Source: Candidatus Aenigmatarchaeota archaeon (lineage in GTDB: Archaea; Aenigmatarchaeota; Aenigmatarchaeia; CG10238-14; SCSR01). Taken from it: a stretch of DNA of 64,000 nucleotides. Location: contig JAVZHQ010000001.1 in the NCBI GenBank assembly GCA_038998335.1, forward strand, positions 640,001-704,000, written 5' to 3'. Position 1 is the stretch's first letter; each line of letters opens with the position of its first letter. This document shows positions 749 through 39,300 of the stretch, piece by piece. Made by a program: the position numbers and the translations under genes. The notes under the pieces are model-generated. The model was given only the letters and a program-made list of their open reading frames with translations, was not told where the DNA came from and searched no databases.

Positions 749-1036
749 TGCAGGAGGCTAGGTCGCGGAGCTAGGCCTTCCGTGCTGCTGAAAAAGCAGT
801 GGCAAATGGTCTACATGGCCGACCGAAGCCTGAGGGCGGTATAAGCTTACAAAAAGGTCCAAGCTTCCGACTGAGAAGCCTCGCCTTTCAGGGTGGGTAG
901 CTTAACGAAACCGAGGAGGTCCGGAAGGAAGCACTCGTAAGTTAAGCTGTCTCATGCTTGAAAGATACGGGGTGGAGAAGGAAGTTTGGAGCAACCTTTT
1001 TGTAAGCTTATATCCACCAAGGGCGTGCCTCCTGCA
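749..1036 (+). ncRNA. ffs: Archaeal SRP (7S) RNA
   Basis: GC-rich 288 nt closed by terminal helix TGCAGGAGGC/GCCTCCTGCA; helix-8 motif GAGGTCCGGAAGGAAGCA; long helix ATAAGCTTACAAAAAGG/CCTTTTTGTAAGCTTAT. Confidence 0.92.
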
Positions 1037-9546: not shown

Positions 9547-10113
9547 CTAAGGTGTGACTCTTGATAAAGAATAATAAGTTACATCTCCTTCCTTATCTAC
9601 AACAGCCCACCACATAGTAGCTCTTATGTTGTGTGCAAGCCTAACTGCACGAGACATTTCTGGTAATGAAAAAGCAGCTTCCTCAGCAACTGCATGAACT
9701 ATTGCTTTTGTATGCTCATGAGGTGCTTTTGGTCCTCTCTTCAGTTTAACTCCTCTTTCATAAAGTCTAAAGTGAGCACCAAACTTGAAACCAGTTTTAA
9801 CAAGATAACCTCTATTCCTTAAGTCCCGATAAACTATAAATTGTGGATGAAATTGGTTAACATTTTTTGTTCCTATTTCTATTAATTCAGAAAGTTCGAT
9901 TTTTCTTTTTTTATCATTTTCTTTAACAAAAACTCTAATCTTTCCCTTTTCAAGTAAGTAAGCAGCCTCTACCAAATCCAACTCAAGTCTGTTTGGGTTT
10001 TCTTCTGGTAACGGTTTACCATAACCAGAATCATCGTAAAGAATTACTGCTTCAGGATCCCAAATTATTACTCTATTTTCTAATAGTTCACCTTCCCAAA
10101 CTTTTTCGCTCAT
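9547..10113 (-). CDS. endA: tRNA-splicing endonuclease subunit
   Basis: LVEAAYL, VYRDLRNRGY.VKTGFKFG..FRLY, H, AVVD.EGDVTYY. Confidence 0.92.
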   Translation of the reverse strand: MSEKVWEGELLENRVIIWDPEAVILYDDSGYGKPLPEENPNRLELDLVEAAYLLEKGKIRVFVKENDKKRKIELSELIEIGTKNVNQFHPQFIVYRDLRNRGYLVKTGFKFGAHFRLYERGVKLKRGPKAPHEHTKAIVHAVAEEAAFSLPEMSRAVRLAHNIRATMWWAVVDKEGDVTYYSLSRVTP

Positions 10114-10660: not shown

Positions 10661-10863
10661 AATTAAATAATGGTTAAAAGAATAAAAAGAATTAACTAGT
10701 TAAAATTTTTTAGTAGTTTTAAAACAATAAAAAATTATGCATTCAAAAATTGAAACTTGTTATGAAAAAATTTGTAAAATGGCAAGAGTTGCCTCAAGCG
10801 TTAATAGAGAATATGTATAAAAACTTATGGGACAGGAGGGATTTGAACCCTCGACACACCGGT

Positions 10864-10875
10864 AACCGCTTAGTT
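10864..10875 (-). other. 12-nt tRNA intron at canonical 37/38 position
   Basis: AACTAAGCGGTT inserted after G37; relaxed BHL-type pairing. Confidence 0.8.
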
Positions 10876-10904
10876 CTTCAGCCGGTTGCTCTCCCGGGCT
10901 GAGC

Positions 10905-10921
10905 TTACAGCACATTAGTGA
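10905..10921 (-). other. 17-nt BHB intron at tRNA position 9/10
   Basis: GGG[ACAG]TA^T-CAC-TAAT-GTG-[CTGT]AA^G-CTC is a strict BHB. Confidence 0.85.
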
Positions 10922-13833: not shown

Positions 13834-13838
13834 TTTAG

Positions 13839-13925
13839 CGCCCTCGCTGGGATTTGAACCCAGGACCTACCGGTTAACAGCCGGGTGCTCTACCACTGAG
13901 CTTTCCTCGTAATTACTACGAGGGC
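13839..13925 (-). tRNA. tRNA-Asn(GTT) with intron at 8/9
   Basis: Removing 13903..13917 gives GCCCTCGTAGCTCAGTGGTAGAGCACCCGGCTGTTAACCGGTAGGTCCTGGGTTCAAATCCCAGCGAGGGCG. Confidence 0.9.
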
Positions 13926-14676
13926 TGCGAGGGCTTAATATATTTTTTAACAACTTGTTTTCATCAATTAAATATTCTTCTATACTTTTATAGAATTTCC
14001 TTAAATTATTAGGCGTTATAACAAAAACTTTATAACCTCTTTGTTGTAAATCCTTTATCTTCTTTTTTAATTTCATAGCTTTATCAAAACCTTTCCACAT
14101 GCTACATTCTACAATAAGGTTACCAACCTTGAAATCTGGGAAATAATATTTTTTATTGACATTTATACAAGGTTCGTATTGATAATTTATTCCAAATTGA
14201 AATAATGTATCAGCAATTTTCTTTTCTAAAGTATTTCTGACGAGTTCACCACGTTTGGTTTTAAATTTGTAGCTTCCAATCTTCTTAAACCGTTCATATT
14301 GCTCTAAGAAATATTTTTCACCTAATTCTTTTCTAAGTTTTTTATGTAACCTGCTAGAAGCTTTTTTCATCTTAATTAGATTTTTTCTGAATGTTTTGCT
14401 TCTAACCTTCTTTAAGTAGCTGGCTTTACCACCAATCCTTTGTTTCCAGTTTTTATCTAACCGTTTTTGAATAATTTGCACGATATCAACTTCTTCTAAA
14501 CCTAAAAATTTCATGAGTTTGTTAAGAACATATCGAGAAATAGGTCTACCTTTATGTTTATAATAATATATTGCAGATTTCACTACATTTAAGGTTTTTG
14601 CCAACTTTCTTTCACTACCAGCCTTTTTTATGGCCATGTTAATTATGTTTTTCTGATCTTTTAATTTAAAATACAT
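13867..14676 (-). CDS. HTH + PD-(D/E)XK-type nuclease, putative free-standing homing endonuclease
   Basis: N-terminal HTH-like SERKLAKTLNVVKSAIYYY; C-terminal GELVRNTLEKKIAD.L...I.Y.YEP...YFPDF...IVE; very basic; reads into tRNA-Asn. Confidence 0.7.
   Translation of the reverse strand: MYFKLKDQKNIINMAIKKAGSERKLAKTLNVVKSAIYYYKHKGRPISRYVLNKLMKFLGLEEVDIVQIIQKRLDKNWKQRIGGKASYLKKVRSKTFRKNLIKMKKASSRLHKKLRKELGEKYFLEQYERFKKIGSYKFKTKRGELVRNTLEKKIADTLFQFGINYQYEPCINVNKKYYFPDFKVGNLIVECSMWKGFDKAMKLKKKIKDLQQRGYKVFVITPNNLRKFYKSIEEYLIDENKLLKNILSPRSPRSNYEESSVVEHPAVNR
13903..13917 (-). other. 15-nt BHB intron at tRNA position 8/9
   Basis: AGC[CCTC]GT^A-GT-AATT-AC-[GAGG]AA^A-GCT is a strict BHB. Confidence 0.85.
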
Positions 14677-14712
14677 AATAAAAACTTTGTTTATTACTAT
14701 TTAAAGTTACTT

Positions 14713-14731
14713 CCAACTGAGCTACGAGGGC
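14713..14731 (-). repeat. Orphan intron-less 5' fragment of tRNA-Asn
   Basis: GCCCTCGTAGCTCAGTTGG; the first 16 nt equal the spliced tRNA-Asn 5' end. Confidence 0.85.
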
Positions 14732-23523: not shown

Positions 23524-23633
23524 GGGGTTGTCAGCTAGTCTGGTTTAGGCTGGCAGGCTCCAGTTTATCTGGAGCTATGAAAAAAGATGAATGAAGAAAC
23601 CTGCTCACGTGGGTTCAAATCCCACCAACCCCA
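23524..23633 (+). tRNA. tRNA-Trp(CCA) with 35-nt intron at 37/38 (23564..23598)
   Basis: Acceptor GGGGTTG/CAACCCC, GCAGG-CTCCAG[intron]A-CCTGC, T arm GTGGG-TTCAAAT-CCCAC. Confidence 0.92.
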
Positions 23634-35207: not shown

Positions 35208-35529
35208 TTACTTTGCTAAAGTAATGTCTATGGTTGAAACATTCACTTTTGTTTTGTCTTCTAGTTCTCTTTCCTCTGTTCCTATCTCTATTGATTTTAT
35301 TTTCACTCCTTCGACAAACCTTCTTCTTACTATTTCTGCAACGTCTACTGCTCTACTAATAGCTTTTCCTCTTGCCTTTATGTGAACCTCTGGCTTTCCG
35401 TCAGAGAACTGAGTTATTACTCCTAACACATAAGCCATACTTGGTTTGCATTCGGTCGATGCTGCTTTGACAGCATCAATGTCCGACAAAGATTACATTG
35501 TCCTCAGTTTTTTCCTGTTTTTCTACCAT
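35208..35529 (-). CDS. albA: DNA/RNA-binding protein Alba, split by a 31-nt intron (exons 35529..35481 and 35449..35208; 96 aa)
   Basis: Spliced product [25 protein letters not shown]...[16 protein letters not shown]...VSTIDI; SD GGAGGTGA upstream. Confidence 0.9.
35450..35480 (-). other. 31-nt BHB intron in alba mRNA
   Basis: TTTG[TCGG]AC^A-TTGATGCTGT-CAAA-GCAGCATCGA-[CCGA]AT^G-CAAA; contains an in-frame TGA; excision restores the frame. Confidence 0.88.
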
Positions 35530-35531
35530 TT

Positions 35532-36329
35532 CTATTCACCTCCTATTAATCTGTTTAATTTTTCCATTTTTTCCGGATAGTTAAAGCCTACAAGCTCCGA
35601 AAATCTCTTCATGGACTTATGGCTTATTACTAGCTCGTATTTTGGATTTTTTCCAAAACTATTCTTAGGTAATATTTTGTAAATAAACGATCTAATTCCT
35701 AAGGAAAACAAAAGTTTTTGAATACCTTCGATTAGTTTTTTATCTGAATTGTAAATAACTATTTTATAGTTTCTTTTATATTTTTGTCTATTCTTATCGA
35801 AACTTTTAAATATAGTTACAGAACCTTCTGCGTCAGCAACACCTCTTATAAAACTTACAATTTCTTCATCAGTCCTCAAAGAAGATAAATCTAAAAATTT
35901 GAACAACTTTACCGCTTCTATAGAGTTTAAAAATATATACCATAAAAAGTTTCCATTACCGGTCCTGTATTTTTTAATCGTAACATTTAACCCGCTCCAG
36001 TTTTTAAGCTTTTCTTTCAATATTTGGGCGAATTCTTGGTTAGAAGTAGTTATATGAATGAAATTTTTTGCGATGTGTCCATTACCTTTTATCACACCAA
36101 ACAGATATGCTAACTCTGGACTCATACTTTTAGAAATAAGCTTTTTTGATTTTTTTTCACTGATTTTCTTTTTAGTTTCTTCAGTATGATGCTTACCCAA
36201 CATAGGTCTTGGGTGTGTATGTACCTTACCACATTTTTTACATAAACAAAAATTATAACCACGAAAACTTGGAATCTTACTAACTAGTTTTCCAGGCGTT
36301 TCTGAGATTTCTGTTTCCATTAAATACAC
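35532..36329 (-). CDS. Free-standing LAGLIDADG endonuclease with NUMOD3-like motif
   Basis: LAYLFGVIKGNG and FIRGVADAEGSV motifs; GKHHTEETKKKISEK; CxCxxC..H. Confidence 0.85.
   Translation of the reverse strand: MYLMETEISETPGKLVSKIPSFRGYNFCLCKKCGKVHTHPRPMLGKHHTEETKKKISEKKSKKLISKSMSPELAYLFGVIKGNGHIAKNFIHITTSNQEFAQILKEKLKNWSGLNVTIKKYRTGNGNFLWYIFLNSIEAVKLFKFLDLSSLRTDEEIVSFIRGVADAEGSVTIFKSFDKNRQKYKRNYKIVIYNSDKKLIEGIQKLLFSLGIRSFIYKILPKNSFGKNPKYELVISHKSMKRFSELVGFNYPEKMEKLNRLIGGE
35536..35543 (-). promoter_or_regulatory. Shine-Dalgarno of alba, embedded in the last codons of the LAGLIDADG ORF
   Basis: GGAGGTGA, 6 nt before the ATG at 35529. Confidence 0.8.
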
Positions 36330-36399
36330 ACCCTGTGTTAGTTATTGAAATACTGTTAAACTTATTTTAATTTAGAGAAATATCTTTAAAAGCTTTTTC

Positions 36400-39300
36400 T
36401 TAATAGTAGTATTCTTCTTCTGGTTTTTTCCAGAGTTTTATCTTAAGATAACCAAACTTCCATAAAACTATGAAAATTCCAGCAACTACCCCAACAACCA
36501 CTAAGATTATTAAAATTGTTGAAAAGTCTGATGATGGTTTTATAAACCTTTGAAGTAATTCGTCTACAATTTGCCTTAAAGTTTGATACCTCCTATTAGC
36601 TTCATTATACTTTGATAAAGCAGTTGAATAATCTCCTTGATTTAGAGCATTCTTGGCTTCATTCAATAAGTTTTTAATTTGGCCGAGCTCTGACCATAAT
36701 GTTGAGTTAACTTTATCTCCCAAACTTTCCATATCCTTTTCTAAGGAGCTTACTCTTGAGGTAAGGTTATTTATTTTGCTTTCCAATTCTTTTTGGGTTT
36801 GAGGACAATCTTGAGAACAAGTTATTTCTTCACCAGGTTCACAAATTTTATTACCACAATAAAATCCTGGACAATCAGAGCAGCTCGGATAACTTTCTCC
36901 TTCTTCACAGATTCCATTATTGTTGCATGTAACTGAAGGACAATCTCTTGGGCAAGTTGTTCTATTCTCGTCTATATTGCAAACGCCGTCACCACAATAA
37001 CAATCTTTTGGACAAGAAGTTGAATTTTCTTCTACATCGCATACCCCATTTCCACATTTTTGCTCTACGCATAAGTTTAACGCTCTGTCACAAACTTTTC
37101 CTGTAGGACAACCACAATCTAAACAACAATTATCTTTGTTTTCTCCTTTTGAAGATTCACACTTTCCATCCCCGCAAGAAGGTAAAATAGAAGTTACTTT
37201 TACTTTTAAACTTACTGTTTTTATCCCAGCATCACTTTCTATTCTAACATAACCTTCATATTCTCCTGTTCTAAACAAAGTGCCGATTATAGAATAAGTT
37301 TTTGATTTTGAAGGTTGAATAGTATCAGTACCATAAAAGTTTGTACTTGTGTTTTCCACTCCATAAACTTCTATGCTGTAAATAGTTACTGCTACCTTTC
37401 CGTTGTTTGTTAAAGTAATCTTTTGTTCAAACCTTTGACCAGAGACTGCTACAATTGAAATTTCTAAAGGCGAGACAGAAATTTTTGGTGTTTCTTTTAT
37501 TGAAATAGAAACTGGTATGCTTATTGTTTTTCCAGCATATTTTACAAAAATTTTTCCGTTGAAATTCTTTTCACCGATTTCAAAAGTTAAAGAAACATTT
37601 TGGCTTTCACCAACTTTAAGTTCTCTCTCAAAACTTATGCTGGTAAATTGTTTGATTTCATCTGAAGCTTCTACAAGCAAATCAGTTATATCGGAATTAC
37701 CGATATTTTTTAAAGTTATGTTTGTTTTAAAAGTTTTATTTGGGTAGGATTCGCCAGAAATTGCTGAAGGAGTAACGTTAAGTAAAAAGTTTGGCTTTTC
37801 AAGACCGAAAGCTAGAACTTTTCCTCCTGTTGATTTACCACTAGCCAAAATCTCAACAAAAAATTGATCTAAATCTAAGCCAATAATTTCTGCCTGAAAA
37901 TTTGTGCCATAGTTTGTGAAATCTCCTTGTTTATATAAAGACAGATCGAAAACTTTCCATACTCTGTAACTAAGGTTTGCGTTTTGATCGCTAGAGGAAA
38001 CCAATAAAGCTAATCTTTTTTGGTCTTTGTTCCAATCAGTTTGCTTCACATCTATAATAATTTCTCCAGGGACTATCAGTCCGTCCATTCTTTCAACAAG
38101 ATTGTTGCTGACAACTTCTCTTGCGCTAATTTTAACTCCGGAAATTTGTATATTGTCAAATGGGATGTTATAGCTTTTTGGTAATTTTTCATTTATCACC
38201 CAGAACTTTCCGACATTAAGGTAAAGATTTGGAAAATAAGAAAAAGAGTATTGAGTTGTTGTATATCCTGGATAAGTGTAAAGAAAAGAAGTGGTAGAAG
38301 GTGTTAGAGGATTTCCAGATGAATCTTTTACATCAAGAAAAAGAAAAAATTCTTTTTCCTTGGTTGGCCATTCAGGTAAAAGTTTCCAGTTGATTGAATA
38401 GCTACCATAATTTTCGTTAAGGATGTTTAAACCATAAGCAAAAACAAAAATTGAAGCGTTAAGGCTTGGTGGACTAGCTGAAACTTCGTAAGTATAAACA
38501 CCAAGCTTTTCAGGAGCAACAAAACAAGTTTGGTTTATACAAACTGAGCCTGAAAAAGTGCAAGTACACATGAGATTGCCTGTTGAAATATCCTTTATTT
38601 TAGCTGTCTTACCTTCGCAATTATCGCCTTGAATAATTGCTTTTACTGTCTCACCCTTTCTTACTGCAGGAGTTCCTGAAAGAGTTCCTAATAATTGAAA
38701 GCTAGTAATGTTACAAGGCAATGGTGGCAAAACTTTAACATAAGAAAAACAAGCAGTAGATTTTGGTTCTGAACCAATCTGGTACGGAATTGCAACTTTA
38801 AAGTAGGTTTCAATTTCTTTTTGAACAGTTGGATAATAACATTCTAAGCTTATTCCGTCTCTTGATAGACCTTGGTCAACTAAGTTGTCAACTGTTACTA
38901 CTTCTTCTTCAAGATAATCAGCACACTGCTTATGTAGTTTATTATAAGTAATCACGCTTCTCCAAGTAATTGAAGTATCTTTTCCATTTTTCAGCTTGAG
39001 TGTAAAGTTTGCTTTTCTATCACTATAAACTGTTTTGCTAGAAGGCTCTATAACACAATAAGGTTCGTTTGGTATATCTTTAACTTCTATCTTAAATATC
39101 GGGGAGAAGACATCTCTGTTTTTATTTCTTAGGTGAATTCTGCAGGTCCAGTTTCCTGCTTTGTCGACAAATATTTTTCCTGTGTAGGTTTCTTTTATTT
39201 GATCCTCCATAGTACTTGAAACACAAGGAGTTGACGGCCTTCCTACATAAGGATCACATTCGTCTATCCAACCTCTAACATCATTTTCATCTGGTGGAAC

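Follow-up and report, generated by a model that had tools for sequence, protein, structure and literature searches.

How the only alba gene of a small archaeal genome can yield an intact protein, and how that gene came to be interrupted, are the questions raised by the locus described here. The genome (G000; Aenigmatarchaeota, DPANN) comprises 1,009,365 bases in nine contigs and is estimated to be about 90% complete. Its single copy of alba lies on the minus strand of the window, i.e. the whole stretch of 64,000 nucleotides that was analyzed, and positions given without a contig or locus name refer to this window. Translated without splicing from ATG 35529, alba reads through 17 residues to an in-frame TGA (35478..35476) inside an insert that also shifts the frame, the Alba frame being continued downstream in a different phase. 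A preliminary description of the locus had reported just this arrangement, with a start codon supported by a Shine-Dalgarno sequence, 17 residues followed by a stop and the remainder of Alba in another frame, and all of its coordinates were confirmed.

The 31-nt insert in alba

A ribosome-binding site, GGAGGTG (35543..35537), is situated 7 nt ahead of the ATG, and the identical heptamer is found in front of alba in most relatives. Exon 1 (35529..35481), delimited by the reading frame and by comparison with a genome of the same genus (G001), consists of the ATG, 15 further codons and the first base of codon 17. Exon 2 (35449..35208) supplies the second and third bases of that codon, 79 codons and the stop TAA (35210..35208), and is recognized by Pfam as Alba (E 1.4e-19, profile positions 9-65). 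Scored alone against this profile (PF01918), it reaches 70.1 bits (cut-off 25), with a match starting only at profile position 9 of 66. The alba of G001 is uninterrupted and encodes 96 aa, and was used as the reference for the predicted splice product. In this protein the profile starts at residue 11, within the equivalent of exon 1, and profile positions 1-8, absent from exon 2 alone, are provided by these exon-1-equivalent residues.

The insert itself (35480..35450) forms, together with its flanks, a whole hBHBh' motif (35490..35445), which is the substrate expected for the splicing endonuclease. The outer helix pairs TTTG (35490..35487) with CAAA (35448..35445) over 4 bp, and the central helix joins TCGG (35486..35483) to CCGA (35455..35452) by four Watson-Crick pairs. 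On opposite strands are the two bulges, ACA (35482..35480) and ATG (35451..35449), while the inner hairpin has 10 pairs, two of them G-T wobbles (35479..35470 with 35465..35456), and a 4-nt loop. A 4-bp helix between two 3-nt bulges, with flanking helices on both sides, is the strict form of the motif, and the BHB fold with a 10-bp hairpin that had been proposed earlier therefore stands. ViennaRNA gave a folding energy of -18.5 kcal/mol (z = -3.48, one of 200 shuffles folding equally well), with a centroid structure identical to the canonical motif and a minimum free energy structure displaced by one pair. In the 1.0-Mb genome, 22 motifs on both strands are equally strong (outer helix of at least 4 pairs, inner helix of at least 10, length up to 100), and the placement of one of them precisely so as to repair a reading frame is far beyond chance.

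Excision of 35480..35450 at the standard positions, as previously suggested, gives an open frame of 96 aa with VGRKP at the junction, and the predicted protein is identical to the uninterrupted G001 ortholog at 94 of 96 residues. Over the whole gene, the codon differences from G001 are synonymous in 15 cases and non-synonymous in two. Exon 1 shares 14 of its 16 residues with G001, and four of its six differing codons are synonymous. Because the differences are mostly synonymous, four of them in exon 1, this exon is evidently kept under selection in the spliced frame. The split Arg codon is unlike that of the uninterrupted genes in the same genus.

The fold, the splice product and homologous introns at the same site in two other loci (31 nt in L007, 32 nt in L178) all point in one direction, and it is very probable that alba of G000 carries a genuine archaeal BHB intron and that its mRNA is spliced by EndA and RtcB. 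Both enzymes are encoded in the genome. The tRNA-splicing endonuclease gene endA (10113..9547, minus strand; 188 aa; PF01974, E 5.1e-27, and PF02778, E 1.8e-17, N- and C-terminal domains) is the single match genome-wide and lies about 25 kb from alba; rtcB is likewise present as one gene, itself split by an insert of 18 nt. The alba transcript can fold so that exon 1, intron and exon 2 jointly form the strict helix-bulge-helix-bulge-helix motif. By extension from tRNA-splicing enzymology, the homotetramer-sized EndA would then cleave both 3-nt bulges, each time 3' of the second base, and RtcB would join the exons. This would remove both the stop and the frameshift and yield a 96-aa Alba with its conserved first strand (VGRKP), while unspliced RNA could give a 17-residue peptide at most.

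The distribution of the insert was surveyed by searching for the exon-2 protein in 41 related genomes, with a match in 35 and the upstream DNA read at 31 loci. With an uninterrupted protein as query, alba was found in 55 out of 70 genomes of the family and 99 out of 118 of the order. Among these, only G000 and G019, the latter from another genus, have an alba match beginning at residue 17; in G019, too, the insert at this site measures 31 nt (L007:1468..1498). A match beginning at residue 21, in G068, is uninformative as an interruption, as the contig ends there. The G019 gene also has a second insert, in-frame, of 18 nt and with two TAA stops (L007:1533..1550). It is compatible with a BHB whose inner hairpin has 4 bp, and its removal restores GVITQF.

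Another 160 alba loci from genome and metagenome collections were contiguous at the intron site in 155 cases and interrupted in five. One of the five, the metagenome contig L178, has a homologous intron of 32 nt at the same site as G000. A second intron family, of 22 and 21 nt, is found 4-5 nt downstream of the G000 site in L173 and L166, and the near-identical L175 and L176 have a 14-nt bulge-helix-loop insert at this second position, also 4-5 nt downstream. Cuts at the standard positions restore V-G-x-K-P in each of the five loci, the second-position introns (L173, L166, L175/L176) giving VGHKP or VGKKP. When the introns of G000, G019 and L178 are aligned, 92.5% of the cells are standard pairs, as compared to 19-55% with the partners slid by 1-3 columns. 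Two pairs have changed on both sides (C-G to T-A), one in the central and one in the inner helix; with three sequences only, the pair count is not significant in a shuffle control (52 of 500 shuffles reach the observed values). One or two outer-helix mismatches occur in G019 and L178, and L178 also has one in the central helix. L173 and L166 differ at both partners of one outer-helix pair, which is formed by the third positions of two codons.

The LAGLIDADG gene upstream of alba

The start of alba adjoins a LAGLIDADG gene, and this changes what the intron probably is. The gene (36329..35532, minus strand) is free-standing, encodes 265 aa and matches LAGLIDADG_3 (E 2.4e-21; 76.2 bits against a cut-off of 22.5, in two stretches) as well as NUMOD3, which identifies it as a homing-endonuclease gene. 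Its stop, TAG (35534..35532), lies on the same strand 2 nt ahead of the alba ATG. Homology to G001 comprises a block at 36405..36358 and, after a gap of about 800 bp, starts again at 35556, within the alba leader. The intervening insertion in the 5' leader (36357..35557), absent from G001, contains the nuclease gene. The block is A/T-rich and TATA-like, is 96% identical over 49 aligned positions to a stretch immediately upstream of G001 alba, and is now located upstream of the nuclease ORF; from its position, we infer that it serves as the alba promoter. As it is here that the homology to G001 breaks, the nuclease gene is best regarded as an insertion between the promoter and the ribosome-binding site of alba, 76 nt upstream of the intron site.

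A weak similarity links the start of the nuclease ORF to the alba leader, of which it may be a decayed copy with ribosome-binding site and ATG. This candidate (36341..36309, minus strand) scores 24 against the G001 leader and start, a value reached by 3 of 500 shuffles. Within G000 itself, comparison with the downstream leader gave no significant sign (134 of 300 shuffles) that leader and exon 1 are duplicated on the two sides of the nuclease ORF.

A homolog of the nuclease in L178 occupies the same place and is 71% identical. When seven such ORFs were aligned, the first LAGLIDADG motif of the G000 nuclease was found to have N where the five ORFs outside its own family have D, i.e. it has no acidic residue in that motif, and the L178 homolog is without the first motif altogether. 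In the second motif, all seven ORFs share D and E. The acidic residue ending each LAGLIDADG motif is what we take to be catalytic. Judging from these residues, the G000 nuclease may be a nickase or inactive, and this copy of the gene may already be decaying. Close relatives of the alba-adjacent nuclease were also sought in the 118 genomes of the order, where the best non-self matches were 34-36% identical and none was next to alba.

For the co-occurrence of nuclease gene and intron, 190 alba loci were reduced by 8 duplicates and by 37 that were short of upstream DNA, leaving 145 non-redundant loci with at least 900 nt upstream. An upstream nuclease gene was present at five of the interrupted loci and lacking at one, that of G019, where the intron is retained without it, as compared to none of the 139 uninterrupted loci; the nuclease queries were drawn from intron-bearing loci, and these are related, amounting to about four independent events rather than six. 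A profile built from the seven ORFs matched only those five among 183 upstream regions, on either strand. All four interrupted metagenome loci with enough upstream DNA have a LAGLIDADG_3 ORF that ends at the alba ribosome-binding site. The nucleases of L173, L166 and L176 form a second family, 60-67% identical to each other and about 27% identical to the first family (G000, L178). Since the first family is found at the G000/L178 site and the second at the second position, there appears to be one intron position per nuclease family. This association of interrupted alba loci, in which a BHB intron accompanies an upstream free-standing nuclease gene, is new here.

Interrupted rtcB and FBP aldolase/phosphatase genes

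Besides alba, two more protein genes of G000 are interrupted, namely rtcB and the gene for FBP aldolase/phosphatase, and all three have an upstream LAGLIDADG ORF of their own. In rtcB, a BHB-type insert of 18 nt, in-frame and with two TAA stops, is situated at C1:120826..120843 (L228:826-843), between G-Y and G-F-P-I-G-G. The adjacent LAGLIDADG ORF (C1:119762..120601) runs up to the rtcB start. Maturation of the rtcB mRNA would itself need RtcB, for which the protein inherited at division presumably suffices.

Many genomes of the family have an rtcB that is interrupted close to the same motif as in G000. In 15 out of 16 loci examined, the motif can be restored by a BHB-type cut; the inserts measure 14-36 nt, occupy three positions no more than about 15 nt apart, and vary in the sequence of their inner helices, which nevertheless remain paired. 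A homolog of the rtcB-adjacent nuclease, or a remnant of one, was found upstream in 4 of 12 interrupted relatives vs none of 8 uninterrupted ones. Four relatives have a LAGLIDADG-like ORF downstream of, and convergent with, an uninterrupted rtcB (G019 C33:16108..16689, G041 C35:4726..5223, G042 C67:1824..2300 and G076 C35:10139..10636). In several relatives, rtcB open frames of about 960-1320 codons suggest inteins.

The FBP aldolase/phosphatase gene (Pfam FBPase_3; C1:46609..47731, L227:1609-2731) is split after 14 codons by an insert of 23 nt (C1:46651..46673) with a strict hBHBh' motif, comprising an outer helix of 7 bp, a central one of 4 bp and an inner one of 6 bp. The Pfam profile resumes after the insert at position 13 of 361. 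A LAGLIDADG ORF of 326 aa (C1:45599..46576) ends 32 nt ahead of the ATG of this gene. A fourth free-standing LAGLIDADG ORF of G000 (402 codons; C1:547159..545954, minus strand) has no evident interrupted gene downstream. LAGLIDADG domains are also found within open frames of 1630 and 2046 codons (C1:712683..713327 and C1:439029..439613, respectively), and these are probably inteins.

A scan of G000 for further candidates gave 60,720 raw BHB motifs at lengths up to 300. Requiring an open frame of 50 codons or more on each side left 1306 true vs 1288 mirror-image motifs (length up to 150), or 72 vs 79 (up to 45), i.e. no enrichment in this genome. The scan recovered the rtcB insert, and a looser first pass had listed those of alba and the FBP aldolase/phosphatase gene. 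As true motifs show no excess over the mirror-image controls, introns of this kind seem to be few and undiscoverable from the motif alone.

Known systems and the origin of the alba intron

The closest known counterpart is the BHB intron in the cbf5 pre-mRNA of Crenarchaeota (Watanabe 2002; Yoshinari 2006; Yokobori 2009, PMC2738675), which is also the pre-mRNA example cited in PMC5829648 and PMC12397907. In the openly searchable full-text literature, including PMC12397907, PMC3082918 and PMC5829648, cbf5 is the sole archaeal pre-mRNA BHB intron named, which bears out the preliminary description in naming it as the established example. The same searchable texts hold nothing on BHB introns in alba, in protein genes of Aenigmatarchaeota or paired with outside nucleases. 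As far as these sources go, cbf5 resembles alba in having a short BHB-bounded intron in a protein gene, removed by the tRNA-splicing endonuclease and a ligase (predicted for alba), with patchy gain and loss among relatives. It differs in belonging to Crenarchaeota with a hetero-oligomeric enzyme, whereas the alba intron is found in DPANN Aenigmatarchaeota with a single 188-aa EndA. Moreover, the alba intron adjoins a free-standing homing-endonuclease gene, a link that the abstract on cbf5 (PMC2738675) does not mention.

Archaeal tRNA introns, whether canonical hBHBh' or relaxed bulge-helix-loop, are like the alba intron in motif geometry, cleavage positions and size range, and the alba and rtcB inserts of 14 to 22 nt resemble tRNA mini-introns. 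In contrast to tRNA introns, the host RNA of the alba intron is an mRNA, and codons make up the exon side of its helices, with pairing and coding constraining each other. LAGLIDADG endonucleases are encoded inside archaeal rRNA and tRNA BHB introns, e.g. I-DmoI. The same nuclease family is thus tied to archaeal BHB introns there as at alba, but the I-DmoI-type ORF is situated inside the intron, while the alba nuclease is encoded ahead of exon 1, outside an intron of only 31 nt.

A free-standing nuclease gene beside an intron without a nuclease gene of its own is the layout of collaborative homing in phages, as in the pair of F-CphI and the ORF-less psbA group I intron of cyanophage S-PM2 (Zeng, Bonocora and Shub 2009, via PMC6083498); trans homing by T4 mobE has also been described (PMC2790892). 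According to PMC6083498, it is the allele lacking the intron that the free-standing nuclease cuts, at the point where the intron inserts, and presence of the intron prevents self-cleavage. The proposed logic would be common to both systems, the intron blocking self-cleavage and the nuclease making the intron mobile. The phage intron is self-splicing (group I), whereas the alba intron would rely on the tRNA-splicing enzymes of its host, and cleavage and protection are experimental findings in the phage while for alba they are drawn from the comparison.

At alba, too, an ORF-less intron is found beside a free-standing nuclease gene, and the two co-occur across genomes. By analogy with the phages, the evidence seems to us evenly balanced on whether the alba intron and the upstream LAGLIDADG gene are the two halves of a selfish (homing) element, the intron being the half without an ORF. 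The nuclease would cut uninterrupted alba at a conserved site, the intron would split this site and thereby shield its carrier, and repair of the break would carry a copy of the nuclease gene, along with exon 1 and the intron, into new genomes. At a later stage, the nuclease gene would decay after fixation and the intron remain. The intron without nuclease gene in G019, the N in the motif of the G000 nuclease and the motif loss in L178 are consistent with such later stages.

It is quite possible, even if we lean against it, that the intron is real and spliced while the LAGLIDADG gene is a mere neighbor, one with a preference for the leader of alba, or for those of highly expressed genes, and with a target unrelated to the intron site; the intron would then have arisen otherwise, e.g. 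by transposition of a tRNA intron. The intron of G019 exists without a nuclease gene, the G000 nuclease is short of one acidic motif residue, 8 of the 12 interrupted rtcB relatives have no upstream nuclease homolog, and in four relatives the LAGLIDADG gene lies downstream of an uninterrupted rtcB and convergent with it, all of which would suit a neighbor. Loss of the nuclease after fixation is, however, the expected later stage of a homing element. A gene settling in leaders regardless of introns is also hard to reconcile with its lack upstream of all 139 uninterrupted alba loci and the eight uninterrupted rtcB loci examined, with the match of two nuclease families to two intron positions, and with the upstream nuclease gene that each of the three interrupted G000 genes has for itself.

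The remaining explanations do without splicing. That the insert is never removed and alba is broken, either as a pseudogene or with translation from an internal start (TTG 35489 or ATG 35436) giving a truncated Alba, is improbable. An open frame of 93 aa does extend from the TTG, but this codon has no ribosome-binding site, whereas ATG 35529 has its GGAGGTG, and the truncated product would be without Alba profile positions 1-8. The gene is furthermore the sole alba of a 90%-complete genome, its exon 1 is conserved with mostly synonymous changes, and the same insert persists with its motif in diverged lineages. Translational bypass is known from gene 60 of phage T4, where it depends on a take-off codon, a stop, a hairpin and a matching landing codon. 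A ribosome skipping the alba insert from the GGA before the stop would find codon, nearby stop and strong hairpin all in place, but there is no matching landing codon after the insert, VGRKP requires a join within a codon, and the 14- to 32-nt inserts in alba, rtcB and the FBP aldolase/phosphatase gene have only BHB geometry in common, which makes bypass a very unlikely explanation. For an artefact of assembly or sequencing, hardly conceivable in our view, nothing speaks beyond the genome being metagenome-assembled, and against it are homologous or analogous inserts in six other independently assembled loci, as well as three DNA runs that contain at least half of the sampled words of the stretch, one of which may be its source. 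In total, 18 sequencing runs came up with words of the stretch. Only one RNA run shows a trace of it, a share of 0.04 of the sampled words, and shares alone say nothing on splicing, habitat or strain; the runs are labelled as hot-spring metagenomes.

Returning to the two-part element, the interruptions in the three genes invite a broader proposition, namely that in Aenigmatarchaeota, and probably in archaea more widely, BHB mini-introns enter and spread in protein genes as the protecting partner in two-part selfish elements, which we consider to have about equal chances of being right or wrong. A free-standing LAGLIDADG nuclease encoded in the 5' leader would cut a conserved coding site of the uninterrupted allele, and an ORF-less intron of 14 to 32 nt, excised by the tRNA-splicing enzymes of the host, would split that site. 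Intron positions a few bases apart would then represent independent solutions against related nucleases, and even the gene of the ligase needed for splicing itself, rtcB, would be a target.

In the searchable literature, archaeal mRNA splicing had so far rested on cbf5 alone, and one genome now adds three interrupted protein genes, i.e. those for a core chromatin and RNA-binding protein (alba), the splicing ligase (rtcB) and a key enzyme of gluconeogenesis (FBP aldolase/phosphatase). Gene callers are liable to mis-annotate such genes as truncated or frameshifted. If the predicted splicing takes place, the tRNA-splicing machinery serves essential mRNA clients in these reduced genomes. The co-occurrence with homing-endonuclease genes would also offer a concrete route for the gain and loss of BHB introns in coding genes, the origin of archaeal introns having been an unsettled matter.

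As to the tRNA genes of G000, ARAGORN in intron mode predicts introns in 19 out of 46, some of these predictions being doubtful. Two tRNA matches in the window are longer than a plain tRNA and likely to be intron-bearing (23524..23633, plus strand, 110 nt; 10828..10914, minus strand, 87 nt), and an archaeal SRP RNA is found at 751..1034 (plus strand, 130.9 bits). Lastly, a tRNA-Leu(CAG) predicted by ARAGORN in intron mode at 13838..14731 (minus strand) would contain an insert of some 800 nt, and Rfam identifies a partial tRNA there (13847..13902). An ORF of 269 aa (14676..13867) occupies the gap in this predicted tRNA, which may represent a large ORF-bearing tRNA intron or a split tRNA.
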